Shown here piece by piece: positions 3,001-61,102 of a stretch of DNA of 64,000 bases (position 1 is the first letter of the stretch; each line of letters starts with the position of its first letter). Below the pieces are notes generated by a model that was given only the letters and a program-made list of their open reading frames with translations, was not told where the DNA came from and did no database searches. The stretch is taken from the NCBI RefSeq assembly GCF_963506605.1, contig NC_083287.1:9424001-9488000 (forward strand), given 5' to 3'. Made by a program: the position numbers and the translations under genes. The stretch comes from Zootoca vivipara (taxonomy: Eukaryota).

Positions 3001-5504
3001 TGAACCCTCTTAGCCTATCCTACTAATTCTGAACACCTGCTTGCCACAGTGTGGCAAATTGATCCACCTGTATGCTTCTTCATACACCCTGCTGATTCCC
3101 ACATGCCTTTATCACTAATATTTGGCAATGCCTCTAAGCCAGAAGTCACCCATATGATCTACATATAATTTCGGACACATATACAGAGAAGATAAATTTA
3201 ATATAGGTCTCTAATTCTCCATGTCTGAGGACATTTAAAGTTACAGCCTAGCTATTAAGGGGGCTGGGGCAGCTCATTATGTCAAAAAATACAAAATCAC
3301 CTAAATGCAAAGAATCTTGTTTCAGTTTTCACAATTTTGATGCTTCCTTCCTTCCTTATGTTAAGAAGGAGGGTATCTTTCCTGTTTCCTATCCTGTCTT
3401 ACACTACATATTCATTTGAACATAAATCCTTCCATGTCCATATTTCCTATAGCTCCAAATATAGCAAGAACTTTCTTAGATCTTGGAGGCACTTAAGCAC
3501 CCCTGATGCTATAAGTTACAATTCGCATTAGAAAATATCTCCTATTAATCTACACCAGAAATTAAATGTTAGCATTCATTTTCAATTCGCCCTTGTTAAA
3601 AATCCTGTGTCAATGGAAGTCAATCATTCTGCAGCACTCCTCCCGGGCTATTAAAATATCTGTCAATATGAATTGTAATTAGAGACGGCTAGTTCTGTAT
3701 GATCTTGCTGTATCCTACTAAGAGTTAAAAAAAAAGAAAAAAACACTTAGAAATTGTTGAAGAAAATTCAGATTGTGTTCAGGAAATTACATATGTTAGA
3801 TCAAGGCCATGTAAAAGTAAATGCATTTGCCTTTCATCCTGAAATAAATGAACAAGTGTGCCATGTGTTTTTTGTTGTTTGCATTCATTTCTGCATTAAA
3901 ATGAACAGGAGATAACAAACATATCAAGAAATCTGAAACTGAAAGAGATATAAGACTGCAACATACTATCCCTCCTGTTTTGCAGGATAGATTGTAGAAC
4001 TGAAATGAATTTATATAATCAGATGCAGATTTGTAATTTTGAAGTGATATTTTCAAAAAAAATTACAAAATCAGACCAATGAACTAGAAATTAGAAAATC
4101 TAAAATTCATTGTGTCAGAATGAGTTCATAAGATGTTTATGCTCAGAACTGATGCTTTGGAAGTTAGCAGATTTGTTAGATTCCAATTTTTACTTCAGCA
4201 GAGCTAGTCATGGTTCAGACATTATGGGCCAAAGATATGCAAACAGCATAGGTTACAGCCATAGCATCAATATTTTGATTAAATTGCATTATAAAGTTGA
4301 ATTAAATATAATACTTTTTATTTGTGAGTCATAAATAAGCACATCTTGATAAGTTGTGCTCGCCCTCTCTTCTAACCAGCTCCCTGAAGAAAAGGTTTCA
4401 GTCTCATTTCTCTTTGGGAGCCATCCCTGTTGGGAACTGTTGCTGCAGTAAACCAATGTGCATATAAACATGTTACAACATTGCATAATCCATTCTCTTC
4501 TATATGCTTCCTCTTGCCTGTAATCATGGGTATCATTTCATATTCCAGGAGAAAAAAATGTTTTTTAAGAGTAGTAAGATTCTCTGCAAAATCTAGAATC
4601 ATGGGATTGTATAATTGTAGTCGGGGGTTTCCAAGGGTCATTTAATCCCACCTCCTGCAGTGCAGAAAAGTCCTAGTTTTAGAGACAATCAATATTAAAG
4701 GGGGGGGGGAACTGTTGTACTTACTTCTTTATATCCTATAACTACAGCAATGTTATCAACAAGGGTCAATGTTCATACCTACTGAATATATCTGTTTCAT
4801 CATTTATAATGAAAGTCACTAAGCAATTAGTACATTGGCCAGAAAAATAGGCATGCCTCACAAATAATCACATGTGCTCCAATATGTCTCCCCTCCCTAA
4901 TTGTGCCCCTGCTGGTGCACATGCACATATATATACATACATAGCTTTATTTCACATCATTTCAGTGCTAAATTGAGGGTTTAAAGCTGAACAAGTATAC
5001 CAAGTCAACTAAAGAGCACTGCATTGTATTCATGGTTTTTCCCTACTAGGTCCAAGATACTGGATTCCACATTAAAAAGCCCATGACAAGAATATCATAG
5101 GAAAATGTTCTCCCATATAACATATCCCCTTGGGATGTGTTCTGGAGAACAATTCTTTCAGGTGTGTCTAGTGTCAGAAGTGAAGTTCTCCTCGACACAG
5201 AGTATTTTCAATTATTTCTCTGATATCCTCATGGGAAAAGCTCTCAAGAAAGTTTATGTATGTTCTTGGAGTGTGTTGCATTCCAGCTCTTTGTTGCTCT
5301 TAACAGTTTCCATTTTTAAAACAAAAAAATATGTTTTTAATTGTATTTTATTGTTATCAACTGACTGTATTATATTGTTTTACAATATGACTTTATTATT
5401 GTTGTATGCCACACATTGAAGGCTGTATTTGGTGGAAACGAGACGTTTAAAGTTCGATGTATGAATGAAATATCTGTCTGTGGCATTTGATGATCGGTTT
5501 ACAT

Positions 5505-5640
5505 CAGGCATCCCCAAACTTCGGCCCTCCAGATGTTTTGGACTACAATTCCCATCTTCCCCAACAACTGGTCCTGTTAGCTAGGGATCATGGGAGTTGC
5601 AGGCCAAAACATCTGGAGGGCCGCAGTTTGGGGATGCTTG
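5505..5640 (+). mobile_element. 136-bp palindromic hAT (Charlie/Buster-type, URR1-like) MITE, family A
   Basis: Termini CAGGCATCCCCAAACT...AGTTTGGGGATGCTTG; perfect 8-bp TSD GTTTACAT (5497-5504, 5641-5648) with central TA; near-identical copies elsewhere in the window. Confidence 0.93.
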
Positions 5641-7576
5641 GTTTACATGAACTTGCTCCCAGGAAAGTGAGAACAGGATTGCAGACTGGGTCACACATGC
5701 ATTTCACTGCTTGATGCTGCAGACTTGAAGCGATGAACAACTAAGCATGAACTAGTCCCTAGTCATAAAATGCACACACTATCAGGGTGAGTAGGATGGC
5801 TGGTTCTCGGTGAGAAGACAACACCCTTCTGTTCAGGCTCCTGTTCCGTCGCTGCCGCCTTTAGTTCTGTCTCCTTCCACAGCTGATCAGAGCCCTTCCC
5901 AGCCTCCACTGAAACATGCCTCCACAGGAAGATGTCTGCCAAGGCAGATTGGCATACCTGCTCCCCCTTCCCAAGTGGCTGAAGTTGGGGCAGAGAAGGG
6001 AGACATTCTGTTCCTACAAACCAGGCTCCCAGCATTTCTTAATAGCTGGTCTTTCACATATTTCTGGTCATGCATTAAGTAGAAAGCACCTAAGTGGGAA
6101 GTTGCCTGAATTTCAGGCTTTCGATTGTTTCCCTTAAATGTTGCATAAAAACACATATTACATCTAGTGGATCAAACATTATGTTTCAATGAGTGAGGCA
6201 AGTATATTTTTCTTCCAGGGGAAATTGCCAAAAAAAAAATCACTCCTCTTAAAACCTAACAGACTGATAACCTCATAAAAAATGTATCCTGAAAATTTCA
6301 AATTTCAATTCCCCCCACCTCCCATAGAGTGGTAGCATCTGAGTGGCAGTCACCATATGACTAAGGGTTATAGCCAATAGTGGATTCTGTGCACAGAAGA
6401 AGGGAGGTGATTTTCACCAATTTCCCTTCCCTTTGCCCTTTCCCAAAATCTGCCCTGGGAAGTTGGGGGTTCCTCTGGTATAGTAGAACAGGGGGAGGGG
6501 CTGAATGGGAAAGGGGGAATGCCTCCCTCCTTTCATTCACAGAAGCCTTTGATGGATCAAATAACTTTTTGTGATTGAAATTACACCTTTGGCTACATTC
6601 CTGAGCTGCAGACACCTCAGTCCTCAGAATGATTGATCCAACATGTGTCCAATCTGCAGGTCAACCCATTATCAGAAGGCATTAAGACTGAGGTGGTCTA
6701 AATGAGGTAGCTGATCTCAACCACTTATTTTTAAAAGTGTAAAGGCCATAGCACCTGCTGGCAGGTAAAATGTAGATTTCTCCAAACAAGCACCTCATTC
6801 TCCACCGCCCATTTTTTTGCTGAACTCATTTAAGAATTAGATTATGAGAAAATTTAATGTAGGTTTTGCTAGAAGCCAAGTTAAAGGTCAACTTTAACTA
6901 AAGTTTCATTTGCTAACTCCAAAACATTAATAATTATGACTAGTGATAGATATTTTTTTTAGGTGAGAAATAGATTTAAAGGATTTTATTAAAGTTGTAT
7001 TCCTCTAAAGGTTCTTTGATCCAGCAGAGTTAATGGAAAGGGGGCTATTTTCCCTGAATCCCCCTTCCCTCTGCAGCTCCCTATGCCCACCCCAAATATG
7101 TTCAAGGGGATTGGGAGACCCTTCAGTACAGTGTGGTAGGTGGGAATTATGGAATTTCCATAAATGACACACCCAGCCTTTTAGCTCATCAAATTCTCCA
7201 CTGGATCAAAGAGTTCTCCATTAGTGGATGGACACAATTGGAAGCAATCCATAGACATATTTTAAAGACAAATACATCTTCATATGAGAAAGATTGCAGG
7301 TACAATAAGACTAGGTAGGAAGTATAGACTCAGCATACCGAACCACATGCTGGAACCTCTCAAAGGAATCAGGGTGCACGCTACAGAGCCAGGATTCTGA
7401 TTAAGTTGCCAGGTGCAAGGAAACCTGTTCTGCATATGGGTACTACCTCTTTGTTACCCCAATCCAGTTATAAAAGCACCTGGGAACCAGAGGAAAAAAA
7501 GGAAAGAAAAGTAGAAGATCAACAGAAATAGAAGAAGGCAAACTGAAGAGGAGCGAAAAAGGGCCAAGCACTAGAG

Positions 7577-10172: not shown

Positions 10173-10375
10173 CATGGTGCAGAAACCATTTATAGTCCAG
10201 ATCACCTACTCTTTGGGCATAATGTCAGGCAAAAATTTTTTGAATTGTGCACTTTCTCTGAAAAATAAGTCTAAGCAGGATTCCTCTTAAACCTATAGTT
10301 CCAATCTAAAACAATGAAAAATATGTCTGAATATTATGTAGTTATTTTGCTTCTGTCCTCTCATTCTTTGCATTA

Positions 10376-10451
10376 CAGGTAGGTAGCTGTGTTGGTCTGA
10401 AGAATTGTGCATGCACACGAAAGCTCATACCTATGACAAACTTAGTTGGTC
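10376..10451 (+). mobile_element. Penelope-like element pLTR mini-insert with hammerhead core and inverted 5' segment
   Basis: 11-bp TSD TCTTTGCATTA (10365-10375, 10452-10462); CTGAAGA...TGTGCATGCACAC-GAAAGCTCATACC...AAACTTAGTTGGTC shared with 60845-60928. Confidence 0.8.
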
Positions 10452-12740
10452 TCTTTGCATTAGTAAGAAAGGGGGGGCATCAAATTGTGTTACCTATCTA
10501 GACTTACTGCTACTCATTTAGCAAACTCCCAGAAAGTTCAGTTCTTGATCCAATGAAAAGAACTGCCAAAATTACATTTCACATTGTTTAAGTAGATTTT
10601 TTTTGTCCATTGCTGTTGACCTAGGTGTGCATAAAATATGACACAACTAACCTATTGCAAAGTCAGATAACCTTGTCACACATTAATAGCTCCTAGACTT
10701 TATGGCATTTTCTGGCACATTGGTGCCCATAGCAAATTTCCAAACCTGGGCTGTTCAGGTCACATTCTAGAACAATGACAGACACCCTTCTGTAACTAAG
10801 CTGTTCTCATTGTTCCCAGTTAACACAAGGACGTGTCTCCTTCCTTTTAGCGTAATTGCCCATTTTGGAAGGGATGGGTAAGAATAACATATGGTAGCTT
10901 CTTTCTCCTTGACAATCACCGACAATAGTTTAAAAGATCTAAAACTCATTCTCTACACAATTTGTAGTAAATACTGTATAAACTAGCCAGTCCTCCAAAA
11001 ATGGATACATCCTTATGCCTGGGCAAATGGAAATGTGTTAATGTGTTATCTGAAAACAATGTATTTGGTGATTTGAGACAAGTAATTATTTGTCCCATTT
11101 GGCTACTCTGGAATTACCCAGTCAAATCCCAATGTCTCTTCCATATGCAATTTTCTTATCTGTTTTATATCTTTTCACCTGAATCGTATCTGCAGATACC
11201 CAAGGTTTAGGACTGCCCTGTAATGTACAAACACTAATAGTCTTGTGAGCACACACACGCTTCATATTGCAGAAGAGTGAGTTACTATCACAAATAGGGA
11301 GTAAGCCCCATTTAATTAGCTAACACTTTATTTCAAGTAAGCACCCATCACACTTCCAAACTTGACTTAGACAGGTAATGCTTATTTATGTCACTTAATC
11401 CAGATTTAGTCAACAAGGATTTACTCACACAACTTAAGATGCACATTAGCTCACTGGTCCACAGTACTGAAATGTTAAACATTATGTAGAATAAACAGTT
11501 ATAATACTTTAGGTACAGAACAAAAACGTTTTTACATGAAACAGACTAGCCTATTTATACAACAGACAGAACTTCTGAAAATACTTCAGATGCATGCATC
11601 AGATTTATGAAATGATACTCTAGCAATGTGCACACATGTCATTATGTTGACCCTCCATGCAAATTTACAATTTGCATTTTGTTTAATCCATCAATACCAC
11701 CAATGGTTTGCCGCTGTTACCTTCTGCGAATACCAGAAGCAATGATTATGAACGACAGAAATTGAATAAACTTCAAAGTCTTGCACAACCATAGCATGAT
11801 AGCACAATAGTGCATGATAGTGCAATTAAGACATATAGAATTGCCTTTATTAACAAAATTATTTAACATGCTATTCCAGAAAATATTTGTTAGCAAAATT
11901 TGGGGGAAATAAACAGTGTTAATATATGTTTGTACAAAATAAAATAACCCAGATGGAGCAACAACTTTCCATTACAACTTCAAAATATCTTTCATTTAAG
12001 TTATCCCACACACTTTCCCCAACCACTGAAAATATTTGTTAAATATATACTGCCTTAATACTGCCTAGCATATTAACATAAATGGAATTGGGAATGATGA
12101 TTCACCACAACCCGCAGACCGCTTTTACCTTTGCAATCTTTTTCTTTTTTCCCCCCAGTAGCCATAGCCAATCATTGCTCTCCTCTTCCATTATGCTTCT
12201 TTATAGCAGACTGAGATGCTTCTTCATTAAGTAGTGTTACAAATAGAACACACCCGAACTCCCAAGTGGAGCATGCTCTAACGACGCTAGTGCTACAGTT
12301 CTCAAGGTAACCAGGCTCAGTTGGAAACTGAGAGCAAAGTCAATGTAAGATTAGTTACGTATTTGCAAGCCTTAATTGCACATTGCAGCTTGCCTCAATC
12401 CATGATGAACTCTCTTCAGAAGAACAGTATTCAGTTAATTTTTTAAGCAATGCAGATAAAAAAAGCAAAAAAAACAAACACAAAACACAAATTTTACCAT
12501 TCTTATACTTAAAGCAACATATAATTTTAAACTCTTTTTTTTAAAAAATGTACAGCACATCAGACAAGCCAATCCAGTTAGTCATAAAACAATATAAGTC
12601 TCTTCTCTTGTTGCCTTACACAATATGGACAGTTGTAACACTGATGGATTTAAACACAGCAGCAGAAAATGAGAAAGCGTGCAGTTCAGAAAAATGCTTC
12701 TGGCTCACAGAGGTCTGGACGAAATGGTACTTTTCACAAA

Positions 12741-55291: not shown

Positions 55292-56239
55292 GGCCAGTCC
55301 CCTCTCCAGACTTCAGATTATGCAGACAATCTGAGTGCAGAATTGGGAAATTTCGTCTGAAATACTGCTGGGGGGGGGGGAGTACTTGCTTATCCATGCT
55401 AATCATCTGTGTGACCTTTATATGAGCTAAACTCACACCTGCAATTGGTTTAAATGGAAATAAAACTCTTGAAAATCATTTTGTATGGGTATTTTTCTAT
55501 AGTCACTGCACAGTACTCCATGGCTCAAAGGCATGTGGTGAAAAGATAAAGATTTCCCCCCCCCCCCCGAGTGTAGATATACCTGAACTAAAGCTTCTAT
55601 GTGCTCCAGAGGGAATTCAGGGTAACGGTTAAGAAACAAAATGGGCAAAAATAGTAGAACATAGTGAAGTCTGACAGATTCCTGTGTGTCCTTGAACTAG
55701 CTTGCTTTTTCACCTCCCTTTAGCTCCCTTTCCAAGCCAGTTATTGGACTTCAATCCTGCATGTCTAGTCTTTTTCCTGACCACAATAGCCCTTGCCAGC
55801 CTTATTACATATTTATCCTGCTCTTCCCACAAATGACTCAAGAGCATATCAGGTTCTCCCCACCCCACCCACATTTCATCATCACAACAATCATGTGATG
55901 CTGAGATAATATCTGGCTGGCCTCAAATCACACATATCAGGGCTTCCCAGGTATCAAGGTTTATCAATGCCGGCTGATCTTTCTTGAAAACCAGCAATAC
56001 TGTTCACACATAAGTTTATCCCTAAAAAACTGTTACTTCATTCATTTCTTTCTGTCTCGTCTTCCTTTTTCATATCAACACCTTGAAAACATTTACCTCG
56101 AAATGAATAGTCTTAACATTCCTCAGTCTGTTGTTCTCAATATTCTATTAATGGAGTTCTTGGAATCTAGATCGGTCAGCTCTTACAAATTGCAGCAAAG
56201 TGGAACCTCCATGTTCAGTAAAATATACCTCTGAATAGC

Positions 56240-57150
56240 AGACAAGGTTGTATATTGTCTCCCTGCTTATTTAACTTATATGCAGAATTCATCATGCGAA
56301 AGGCTGGACTAGATGAATCCCAAGCCGGAATTAAGATTGCCGGAAGAAATATCAACAACCTCAGATATGCAGATGACACAACCTTGATGGCAGAAAGCGA
56401 GGAGGAATTAAAGAACCTTTTAATGAGGGTGAAAGAGGAGAGCGCAAAATATGGTCTGAAGCTCAACATCAAAAAAACCAAGATCATGGCCACTGGTCCC
56501 ATCACCTCCTGGCAAATAGAAGGGGAAGAAATGGAGGCAGTGAGAGATTTTACTTTCTTGGGCTCCTTGATCACTGCAGATGGTGACAGCAGTCACGAAA
56601 TTAAAAGACGCCTGCTTCTTGGGAGAAAAGCAATGACAAACCTAGACAGCATATTGAAAAGCAGAGACATCACCTTGCCGACAAAGGTCCGTATAGTTAA
56701 AGCTATGGTTTTCCCAGTAGTGATGTATGGAAGTGAGAGCTGGACCATCAAGAAGGCTGATCCGCCGAAGAATTGATGCTTTTGAATTATGGTGCTGGAG
56801 GAGACTCTTGAGAGTCCCATGGACTGCAAGAAGATCAAACCTATCCATTCTTGAGGAAATCAGCCCTGAGTGCTCCCTGGAAGGACAGATCGTGAAGCTG
56901 AGGCTCCAATACTTTGGCCACCTCATGAGAAGAGAAGAATCCTTGGAAAAGACCCCTATGTTGGGAAAGATTGAGGGCACTAGGAGAAGGGGACGACAGA
57001 GGACAAGATGGTTGGACAGTGTTCTCGAAGCTACGAACATGAGTTTGACCAAACTGCGGGAGGCAGTGCAAGACAGGAGTGCCTGGCGTGCTATGGTCCA
57101 TGGGGTCACGAAGAGTCGGACACGACTAAACGACTAAACAACAACAACAA
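56240..57150 (+). mobile_element. 5'-truncated BovB LINE (RT C-terminal half, one +1 frameshift at ~56762)
   Basis: RQGCILSPCLFNLYAE...NNLRYADDTTLMAES...; (CAA)n tail; extra C in GCTGATCCGCCG relative to the 33210 copy. Confidence 0.97.
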
Positions 57151-58872
57151 GCAGCTGCTGAGGACAAAATAACAGAGGAGGGGTTTTGCATTTAGGAGCT
57201 GCATGTAAGATTCACAAAAGCAAAAGGCTGGTCACTGTTAGAACTAGATATACCATTAGTGCAGATCATGGGTTGGCAGAAGGTAGGCTGGGATCTATTG
57301 GTAGATTTCTGGGTGATTTGCTGTGGATTGGAAAGAGTTCCCGACTCCTAATTGTCTAACAATAGCAGTAATAAAACAGCTTCACAGCTAAATTAAGCTG
57401 CTGAAAAATAAGGCTCCAGAGGAATAAAATGAGGGATTGGCATGAAAGGAAATGCGAGCTTGGTTCAGGCACCGATCACAAATTCATGGGCTCAGCATGT
57501 GCTCAGAGGCCCCCAGTTCCATAATTCTTGGACTGGTGAGAGGACCTCAGGGTTCTAGGAAAAACCAAAGAAGGTCTTGCAATCCTGAAGTATGCCCACT
57601 CCTAATCTAGATAGATCACGATTGTGTTCCTCTAGTTTTTATTTGACCCCAACTCCCATCAGCTCCAACCACCATAACCAATGGTAAAGGATTATGGGAG
57701 CTGTAGTTTAATAACATCTGGAAGACCACAGGCTTCCCATCCCTGAGATACATCTTTGGTCGTATGCAACCTTACCTGGGAACAAGTCTGATTGAACTCC
57801 AAGGGGCTTACTTCTGAGCAGACATCTATGGGCTTGAACTGAATATGCAGTTTTAGTTTAGTGGTGCATATACTTGGGGACAGCGAAAGAAAGTCAAGGT
57901 TTGAGCACTGACTCTTTTCTCATTGTGCTTATTTCGAGCATGCCCAAATATATTCTAAAATACGAACGGTATATTTGTTGAGATTGGTTTCAATTCACAG
58001 TGACTCAGAGGCTGACTGGATGTGTCATGACGAATTTGGCATCCCCTCTGAACCCTTTCATTATCATAAGATCAGTCCAACCAGCATGCGGCATTCTAAA
58101 ACTAAGTGGGAGGCTGGAAGCATGATGTGTTTGGTGAGGGGATACCTGAGTGGGGGAAAGGAACAAGTGGGCTCTCCAACAAAATTCCTGTCCTCTAAGA
58201 GGAGCTCTCCTGCTCAAGGTTCCCAATAGCTTAGAATATGAACCTTATAGTGCTGTTTAGCCCTGTCAAGGTGCAGGAAATATGGAATTTCAGGAGTTGG
58301 AGCAGATAAAGGAGAATGACCATAGTGTACTGGGGGACACTTGACCACCAGGTCAGGGTTGCAATTTATACCCCACCCCACCCCCATCAACACGGATTGA
58401 CCAGCTCCCTGGGAGAGGCCAACCAAACCCTGGCTCCTTGCTGGAGCACCACAATTTTTGCAAAACTGCCCACCAATGAAGGTACCATAAGTAGACTTTT
58501 TTTGAACATTTAAAAGTGCAACTGGTTTACAAGTCAATGAAACAGGAGGCTTCTGCATATAACCGAGTGCTAGAGTTGCATACTTTCCTCTACTAAACAC
58601 ATTTTCAAACATCTTTTTTTTGGGGGGGGGTGGCTAATCTCACCAGAAAATTCAGAGAAGTGAGAATAGCTTCATTTTGTTTTCCATATTGTTTGGGGAA
58701 GTATGAATTAGGCTGAATCGCATTAGAGTACCAATCATACTCCATTTCCTCCCCCATTTTTAGTGAGTGCTCCCATTTTTCCACGTAAGCGTAGGTACTT
58801 TCCTCCAAAGACTGGGATTATAACATTTCATGCCACAAACAACCTGCAGATGCCTTCTTCCTTGAAACATGT

Positions 58873-59491
58873 CAGCAGCTAAAAAAGCCAATGCAATTCT
58901 GGGCTGCATCAATAGGAGTATAGCATCTGGATCAAGGGAAGTAATAGTACCACTGTATTCTGCTCTGGTCAGACCTCACCTGGAGTACTGTGTCCAGTTC
59001 TGGGCACCACAATTCAAGAAGGATAATGACAAGCTGGAACGTGTCCAGAAGAGGGCAACCAAAATGGTCAAATGCCTGGAAACAATGCCTTATGAGGAAC
59101 GGCTTAGGGAGCTGGGTATGTTTAGCCTAGAGAAGAGAAGGTTAAGGGGTGATATGATAGCCATGTTCAAATATATTAAAAGATGCCATATAGAGGAGGG
59201 AGAAAGATTGTTTTCTGCTGCTCCAGAGAAGCGGACACGGAGCAATGGATTCAAACTACAAGAAAGAAGATTCCACCTAAACATTAGGAAGAACTTCCTG
59301 ACAGTAAGAGCTGTCCGACAGTGGAATCTGCTTCCAAGAAGTGTGGTGGAGTCTCCTTCTTTGGAGGTCTTTAAGCAGAGGCTTGACAGGCATATGTCAA
59401 GAATGCTTTGATGGTGTTTCCTGCTTGGCAGGGGGTTGGACTGGATCGCCCTTGTGGTCTCTTTCCAACTCTATGATTCTATGATTCTATG
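58873..59491 (+). mobile_element. Young 5'-truncated CR1 LINE with an intact ORF2 C-terminus
   Basis: [16 protein letters not shown]...[20 protein letters not shown]...[13 protein letters not shown]; (ATTCTATG)n tail; short ATGTC duplication at the ends. Confidence 0.97.
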
Positions 59492-60844
59492 TCCCGCAAA
59501 ATCCTTGCCAAGGCATCAGGTATCGCTAGACCCGATACTTAAGATTTTCCTGGCTTGCAAATATGACTGTTTTCTTTAAGCAGGAGTTGGGAACCTCAAA
59601 CCCAGGAGCCAAATATGGCCCCCAGGCTCCTCTGTCTGGTTTTGGGACACTCCACACACCACATCCCCTCTTCTCAGGTCTCCCCCTTTGACTGCCCCTC
59701 TTCTGCCCTCTCCTTAAATGATTTGCCCCTCATCTTGCTTGCTGCAGTGGTGGATACAGGTGCAGGAGAGTTTGCCTCGAATGGAGTCTACTATACAAAT
59801 ATAAGAGTCATAGCCTTTGCTCCACCCACTTTTTGCCTCTGCCCTTGGGCTGAAAAGGGTTTCCCACCCTTGTCTCAGAGGGCATTTGATGTGTGGCCTC
59901 TGTAGCAGCAAACCATTCTTAAACCTGCAGGGAGGTTTTGGCTAGAAGCACGTTCAGGTTTTTCCTGGCCCATTTGCTAGAGGAATAGGAGTGCCCCTCT
60001 CCTCTTGTCGCAGATAAGTTCCTTCACCTGGATTCTTCCATTGTGCGACATGGGTGTCAGATTTGGCCTCTGTTTCACTATCGAACTTGGATACGAGGTT
60101 AATTTAATTGTTTGGCAGCTCCAGCAGTCTCTCCCTGCTCCTTTGTAATAGTGCGAGAGAACAAAGAGGTCTCTGATATTATCTTAAGACAAGAAGATCT
60201 CTTGCTTGGCAATTTTCATGCTGTCAAATATGAGATTGTTAAAGAACTTATCAGTAGGTGGCTTTTGATCAATATTTTGTTAAAGCAAAGACAATTACAT
60301 CCCAATTTAGCAAATATATGACTAGCTTTCAGGAAAATACCTTCTGACAGAATCTTGAGGCTCCTGTTCAGAAAGCCACCCTCCTTTTCAATTGAAATAT
60401 CAATGTTTTCAACATGCAAGCACTCGCAAACTTTTGACAGGGCACATTCTACTTAAAAATGGAGCCAAGAAGAGCTAACATGATCTCCCATGGACTCAAA
60501 TTCAGGGCTTGTGCTAAAATGAATGCTCGGCCCACATGAAGTTGCATCCACTTCCTTCTGCTTATTCCTGTTTTTATCTACCGGTATAATCTTTGGCATC
60601 AATAGGGAATGATAGCTGGGTTACAAAGTGAATGAGAGAGGATGTGAATGACTGCTTTTCCAGGGTGTGATATAGTAACCTTCCTCATTCCTTGACAGGG
60701 CTTCACTCCACTGTGGAACCAATTGTCAACTTTTGCCAGGGGAAATATTCACCTGTCACATTTGCCTTTCCCCTCTAGGAGTTCATTACCACCCTGATAG
60801 GTGAAGACAGACAGCAAGGGAGAGACTGGTTCAAGGAAACAGAG

Positions 60845-60884
60845 GGTATCTGAAGAAGTGTGCATGCACACGAAAGCTCATACC
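60845..60884 (+). ncRNA. Minimal type I hammerhead ribozyme motif
   Basis: GGTAT (helix I) CTGAAGA A GTGTGC-AT-GCACAC (helix II) GAAA GC TC | ATACC (helix I'); predicted cleavage after C60879. Confidence 0.75.
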
Positions 60885-60928
60885 AAAATAAAAACTTAGT
60901 TGGTCTTTAAGGTGCTACTGAAGGAATT
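60845..60928 (+). mobile_element. 84-bp Penelope-like pLTR mini-insert
   Basis: 15-bp TSD TTCAAGGAAACAGAG (60830-60844, 60929-60943); homologous to 10376-10451. Confidence 0.85.
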
Positions 60929-61052
60929 TTCAAGGAAACAGAGTTAGGGCCAAATGACATGTTAGGCAGAGTTTTGTGTAGTGGTTCCTTGGGTGCTTTT
61001 TGTTTTTACATGAAAAGCAGCTGACAGAAGTTGCATCTACGAGTGCAGCAGG

Positions 61053-61102
61053 CAGTGCCAGATTTACGTATAAGCTAAACGAGCTATAGCTTAGGGCCCC
61101 AC

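Follow-up and report, generated by a model that had tools for sequence, protein, structure and literature searches.

A short hammerhead insert in the Zootoca vivipara genome as a probable leader copy of a Neptune-type Penelope-like element

Within the 64,000-nucleotide stretch of Zootoca vivipara DNA analysed here (the window), a short insert carrying a hammerhead ribozyme motif lies between perfect direct repeats and begins almost exactly at the first helix of that motif. The locus raises the question of where such an insert comes from: is it a mobile unit in its own right, as the initial annotation proposed, or a fragment of a larger element, and what fixes its ends? We addressed this by comparing the insert with its genomic relatives, with an intact parent element and with published systems, which are cited here for the accessible parts of each source.

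The TSD-flanked insert is 84 bp long (60845-60928), and its right boundary is ambiguous by 2 nt because the start of the TSD also fits a T-run in the parent. Direct inspection of the sequence bore out the 15-bp TSDs and the minimal type I hammerhead of the initial annotation. That annotation had given helix I as GGTAT/ATACC; four of its pairs belong to the family, but the fifth is made by the non-parental junction base G60845. The family helix is thus 4 bp long, because the parent carries T, not G, at this position. The features are collected in Table 1, and relative positions below are counted from G0 = 60846.

Table 1. Coordinates of the insert and of the second family copy in the window
Feature	Position	Strand	Basis or remark
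Left TSD, TTCAAGGAAACAGAG, 15 bp	60830-60844	+	identical 15-mer, not extendable
Non-parental 5'-junction G (parent has T)	60845	+	likely copy of the RNA cap; genome-wide G excess
G0	60846	+	inferred transcription start of the parent PLE
Minimal type I hammerhead	60846-60884	+	layout, fold, parent alignment, covariation
Helix I	60846-60849 with 60880-60883	+	family version, 4 bp
CUGAAGA core; extra A	60850-60856; 60857	+	
Helix II; GAAA; then palindromic AGCT	60858-60871; 60872-60875	+	
Cleavage triplet CUC, C17	60879	+	predicted cut after C60879
Remaining PLE leader, to T-run start	60885-60928	+	first 3'-end peak; parent alignment
Right TSD, TTCAAGGAAACAGAG, 15 bp	60929-60943	+	first 2 nt also match the parent T-run
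Left 11-bp TSD of copy 2	10365-10375	+	right counterpart 10452-10462
Inverted PLE tail segment of copy 2	10373-10399	-	96% over 27 nt to parent
Broken hammerhead and leader of copy 2	10396-10451	+	sister subfamily

The 35-nt hammerhead core matches twice in the 64-kb window and in none of 100 shuffles, and it has 17,000 exact copies in the genome against 0 for the reversed control, so that its presence is not due to chance. Genomic counts given here are from pattern matching across the 1.44-Gb genome. The insert carries the CUGAnGA and GAAA core and the NUH triplet of the minimal hammerheads of Penelope-like elements (PLEs), together with an extra base between A9 and G10.1, a G10.1-C11.1 pair and palindromic 15.2-16.2 positions (PMC4209133); by way of its intact parent it can also be placed in a PLE pLTR. 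The fold of the 41-mer is weak (z = -2.17); for the parental version, which lacks the junction G, z is -0.56, with helix III unpredicted in the monomer. A search of Rfam returned no hammerhead at the gathering score in the window, nor at E<=10 over 60700-61100.

As a further check on the fold, which the initial annotation had proposed, we looked for covariation in helices I and II. A descriptor search admitting other types of helix II gave 12 matches, 9 of them from an older, decayed family (L183-L187, L190-L193) whose helix I is of the GCAU/AUGC type and whose helix II differs; these copies resemble a turtle motif in the accessible part of supplementary file 2 of PMC4209133. The resulting alignment has 14 rows and takes in 11 of the 12 matches (L182, a deletion variant, is excluded, and one base is missing from the L104 row). 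Pair 2 of helix I, which lies outside the search pattern, is C-G in 7 rows, U-A in 4, U-G in 1 and unpaired in 2, and the covariation score of this alignment of both families was above that of all 500 shuffles. The change in helix II was forced by the search pattern, and the covariation that is present against the older family amounts to about one event per pair, since the rows form two related groups. CpG positions excepted, each fixed base of the core is kept in 146-151 of 151 contexts, among matches limited to at most 3 mismatches.

The source of the insert could be located. The parent is an intact tandem PLE with 3,030-bp units and an ORF for a 901-aa protein with RT and GIY-YIG domains; positions 60846-60928 are identical to its leader (83/83; 83/84 over the whole insert), which bears out the PLE origin put forward in the initial annotation. 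A 598-bp tandem array (L061) revealed the sequence downstream of the tail and so led to the ORF start, where a 35-mer has 148 genomic copies, several of them 3,030 bp apart. The tandem units at L162-L166 have open frames of 925 codons, and their 901-aa product, encoded by a single ORF with a C-terminal GIY-YIG domain, matches Pfam RVT_1 and GIY-YIG above the cut-offs. The ATG lies 137 nt below G0, and the full-ORF copy L165 begins at G0. Between the RT and endonuclease (EN) domains the linker reads C-X4-C-X2-C, and a CX2-5CxxC linker at this place is the mark of Neptune and Nematis (PMC8557442); by these sequence characters the parent is classed as a Neptune-type EN+ PLE. Its family also shows tandem pLTRs, inverted 5' copies and an optional tail of 30-40 bp.

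Two features of these loci deserve mention in their own right. L162-L166 hold several near-identical intact 901-aa ORFs in tandem and head-to-head arrays, a pattern of sequence that suggests recent activity. The array at L061:4320-6742 (G000:C1:2777319-2779741) is made up of four tandem units, each 598 bp long, from a PLE with an internal deletion, in which the start of the ORF is joined to the C-terminus of the endonuclease and followed by a pLTR. It has an intact hammerhead in every unit and the tandem arrangement of a non-LTR retrozyme, and it is a natural dimer substrate.

The wider family is dispersed, as had been proposed: besides the copies of the core, a 26-nt anchor further 3' has 32,109 exact genomic copies. 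A second member in the window, at 10376-10451, had been described as another ribozyme. Its family membership holds (an 89.7% match across 58 nt and an inverted tail of 27 nt, between 11-bp TSDs), but it is structurally broken: with the 5' strand of helix I missing and G10.1 changed to T, which removes the G10.1-C11.1 pair, it cannot form a ribozyme.

Both copies had also been placed antisense to local transcription. For copy 2 this is plausible. A CpG island with CCG/GCT repeats lies at window positions 14000-15100, and near 14,100 the minus strand has a donor-like site; the island is likely the first exon of a gene, and with the donor-like site it suggests that copy 2 sits antisense in a first intron. 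Around copy 1 no host gene was recognised by eye in the ORF and exon lists, neighbouring stretches included, and an antisense orientation can be proposed for copy 2 only. Elsewhere in the window, a plus-strand Rfam match to SNORA33 (2042-2174, 78.9 bits), with no ribosomal-protein exons recognised nearby by eye, is possibly a retroposed copy. Plus-strand open frames at 56222-57137 and 58866-59411 resemble what we take to be RTE/BovB-like and CR1-like LINE fragments.

To see where copies of the leader end, we examined 117 arms lying within the initial 2.9 Mb of contig C1, counting an inverted insertion as two arms. The 3' ends are bimodal: 59 arms lack the tail and end at about +86-97, 56 have it and end at about +124-138, and only 2 enter the ORF, 19 apparent ends beyond +210 being mostly alignment artefacts. 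Counted from where helix II starts, the second peak falls 112-126 nt downstream. Because arms were sampled by the 3' anchor, their 5' ends were not preselected. Among the 116 arms that could be placed, 21 begin at -4..+1 (3.5 per nt) and 19 at -32..-200 (0.11 per nt); 23 begin at +8..+31, 20 of these at inverted-arm junctions, 2 begin at +32..+36, and about 49 extend beyond -31. Copies stop at G0 twice in L178 and in L112, and some, such as L144 and L166, begin at -3 to -5. Of the 60 non-inverted TATA-less copies, 22 lie between exact repeats of 9-16 bp, with all loci pooled and at least one element-internal false match included.

The upstream sequence suggests a reason for the peak at G0. In 31 of the 33 distinct upstream variants, G0 is preceded by a TATA-like box at a distance of 31 nt, with a spacer of varying sequence; the fraction of copies bearing the box rests on the arms sampled above, all taken from a single contig. 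The optimal spacing of a TATA box is about 30-31 nt, with a pyrimidine-purine start. Among PLEs, a rotifer pLTR has been reported with a TATA box and an initiator-like TCACT (PMC3846280).

A further indication comes from the base before G0. Genome-wide, 4,023 of 14,501 copies (27.7%) have a non-parental base at -1, compared with 708 of 19,036 (3.7%) at the +3 control; the -4 control gave 125 copies, all one subfamily, and background loss is 1.4% per base. Hand counts of the first 100 matches listed at each position gave G 70, A 17 and C 13 at -1; G 11, A 31 and C 58 at +3; and G 14, A 16 and T 70 at -4. On these counts, G at -1 differs from the +3 and -4 controls with Fisher p = 4e-9 and 8e-4, respectively. 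At 28 of 30 inspected loci with a non-parental base at -1 there is no upstream pLTR. We rejected the alternative of a subfamily with G at -1, as only 2 of 29 G copies were flagged as TATA-bearing and one of these flags (L179) was spurious. A clean TSD followed by one G is seen in only 3 of 27 TATA-less copies of the G class; in the others the G belongs to the TSD or to an element-derived piece. In L1, an untemplated 5' G has been linked to copying of the cap (PMC9341517). The extra G, which precedes G0 in thousands of the copies here, likely marks the capped transcription start of the element, and the window copy, with its TSD, single G and span from G0 to the T-run, is the cleanest type of product.

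The ribozyme itself might instead have set the 5' ends, with cleaved RNA serving as the template. This candidate was rejected: purine-preceded starts number 107 at the cut site and 101 one base earlier (p = 0.73), and of 30 cut-site matches inspected, 12 were judged to be intact ribozymes in which a base had changed. The peak at G0 and the lack of enrichment at the cut site thus indicate that the template ends at G0 rather than at the cleavage product.

RNA reads were drawn from three runs with the same species label, all from one study, at about 6% of each. Depth over the leader was 117-1,772 per mate class, mostly from reads continuing into host sequence, and only 0-3.6 at the start of the ORF. 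No pile of read starts or ends appeared at G0 or at the cut site among those listed for the three runs; these blank tables weigh little because the libraries consist of fragmented short reads whose strandedness is not known, and most of the signal is host read-through (40-89% of the reads continue into unlike sequence). Loose read ends fall at -1 to +6, +87/88 and +129-132, the same places as the ends of copies. In run X24, depth reached 100-540 over the endonuclease C-terminal region (L164:2700-2900 and 5427-5729), far above the other two runs.

The same reads bear on the idea that G0 is a 5' splice site and that the short copies are reverse-transcribed excised introns, ending at the T-run and the CAG at +104. 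The element begins with GT at G0 and has a T-run followed by CAG at +102-104 in the subfamilies inspected; at L164:3144-3168 (parent +80..+104) this stretch looks like a 3' acceptor, 33 nt above the ATG, and PLE introns are known (PMC2377424). However, many of the copies beginning at G0 extend through the tail to about +130, past the acceptor, and the joint of -1 to +105 is absent among the 15 RNA joints listed of 45. We give this explanation next to no credence.

The initial annotation took the copies for an independently mobile family of ribozyme mini-elements that cut host transcripts in cis or in trans. The 32,109 copies of the anchor, the conservation of the core in the 151 contexts and the abundance of copies in host RNA are what such a family would lead one to expect. 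Yet the insert matches the parent leader at every position from G0 on, the ends of copies are heterogeneous with two broad 3' peaks, the TATA-like box lies outside the insert, and the fixed ends, own promoter and diagnostic changes of a SINE-like non-autonomous element were not found. A distinct mini-element is therefore not supported, and the window locus is ordinary, one among tens of thousands of PLE fragments. Nor did the cutting of host transcripts find support: no pile at the cut site was listed at depths of 100 to more than 1,000, which is a weak test; copies starting there are not enriched; and forward and reverse counts of the core, not strand-resolved against genes, are equal. In the accessible parts of the published work, a lone minimal hammerhead of S. 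mansoni showed no cleavage (PMC4209133), the anole PLE hammerhead requires its protein (PMC11167929), and 1 of 9 Xenopus dimers was cleaved while 8 of 9 were not (bioRxiv 2026.07.22.740005). We consider the mini-element reading very unlikely. On its own as a monomer, the ribozyme is probably inactive, and in the parent its activity would depend on a dimer or on the PLE protein.

We think it probable, though well short of certain, that the insert is a short copy of the leader of a hammerhead-bearing Neptune-type PLE, internally primed on the element's own capped RNA and run off its 5' end. Pol II would start at G0 from the TATA box of the pLTR, and the RNA would therefore begin with helix I. 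The endonuclease would nick target DNA, and RT would start at an internal site, about +86-97 or +124-138. From the first leader it would reach the cap after 85-135 nt and often add a C, which appears as G in the top strand; for the window insert, priming would have occurred about 85 nt into the capped RNA. The cDNA would then join the target or prime again, giving inverted arms and short duplications, while read-through RNA spanning tandem units would yield the longer copies from its downstream leaders. Because it lacks the TATA box, such a copy is likely dead on arrival.

This origin on capped RNA accords with the identity to the parent, the TSDs, the two 3' peaks, the sharp 5' peak at G0, the excess of G at -1, the TATA-like box at -31 and the lack of a peak at the cut site. 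Against it, about 49 of the 116 arms reach past -31 and call for a tandem read-through transcript, the RNA shows no pile of starts at G0 among those listed, some copies begin at -3 to -5, and a fold-back on helix I can give a G without a cap (L207, L214, L221; 4-5 nt in 3 of 28). In D. virilis, Penelope is described as having a TATA-less internal promoter and a start well upstream of the ribozyme (PMC2377424).

Some of these points would also suit another history with no capped start, in which the copies are ordinary 5'-truncated products from a downstream pLTR of read-through RNA and the peak at G0 reflects pausing of RT or a fold-back on helix I that adds a templated C. Junctions of this kind do occur: L207, L214 and L221 are inverted insertions whose arms are joined via helix I complementarity (17-20 nt checked), which suggests, from sequence, self-priming of the cDNA on the ribozyme helix. 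Many copies extend upstream into the endonuclease region, and 5' truncation and self-priming palindromes have been described for PLEs (PMC3846280; bioRxiv 2026.07.22.740005). However, an RT moving 3' to 5' should open helix I before it reaches G0, leaving no barrier in the monomer, and fold-back predicts extension by more than one base, whereas among 28 unselected G copies only 3 were extended by at least 4 nt. The constant distance of 31 nt between the TATA-like box and G0 would also be left unexplained. We regard this history as unlikely, though it deserves some weight.

If copying to the cap is correct, internal priming on the leader would explain why minimal hammerheads occur singly throughout the genome. 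A cut in the parent RNA would remove the cap and 34 nt. The role of PLE hammerheads has been termed unclear (PMC8557442), and we tentatively suggest, as a possibility that falls short of even chances, that the ribozyme is a cap-proximal switch: cleavage triggered by a dimer or by protein would take the cap off the mRNA 137 nt upstream of the ORF, and RT, mostly copying the leader back to the cap, would scatter thousands of cap-marked ribozyme cassettes through the genome. The peak at G0, the extra G, the TATA spacing, the two 3' peaks and the missing peak at the cut site would fit one simple cycle with a predicted start site, in a group whose transposition cycle has so far been only partly reconstituted. 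With intact, near-identical parent ORFs available, the start site, copying of the cap and cleavage assisted by the protein can be tested directly in an element of Neptune type. In the openly accessible literature covered, we found no report of a PLE start on helix I or of a cap-derived G. The new part is this family-level 5' signature, a modest and testable addition to PLE biology.

The type of motif is already known, and the insert belongs to it: PLE minimal hammerheads, including reptile ones, were described in 2014 (PMC4209133). Besides the core features listed above, the insert shares with them a 4-bp helix I, and its family likewise runs to thousands of copies, most of them single and associated with truncated PLEs; a Chrysemys (turtle) row in supplementary file 2 of that paper has the same layout. 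Unlike those described there, the present family has a perfect 14-nt palindrome for helix II and GUAU/AUAC rather than GCAU/AUGC for helix I. The accessible part of that paper reports no transcription start on helix I, 5'-end peak or extra G.

The closest functional parallel is PAc, the Poseidon PLE of Anolis carolinensis (Frangieh et al. 2024, PMC11167929), for which two internal RT-initiation sites that bound the tail were shown in vitro, as the two 3' peaks do here. The anole starts lie 111-118 nt below the start of helix II, compared with 112-126 nt for our second peak. Uncleaved RNA was the dominant template for PAc as well, with no reads ending at the cut site. The two elements differ in that the parent here has a Neptune-type Cys linker and an ATG well below G0 rather than at helix II, and run-off copies to the cap are not discussed in the accessible text of that study.

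Non-LTR retrozymes (bioRxiv 10.64898/2026.07.22.740005) are likewise derived from PLE pLTRs, carry type I hammerheads and occur as dispersed monomers, but they are defined by tandem arrays of at least two ribozyme units, whereas the window locus is a single TSD-flanked copy. Finally, an additional G likewise stands at the 5' junction of full-length L1 insertions, where it has been interpreted as copied from the mRNA cap (PMC9341517). L1 primes at the poly(A) end, so that only a full-length copy reaches the cap; here, internal priming near the 5' end would yield very short copies that still reach the cap.
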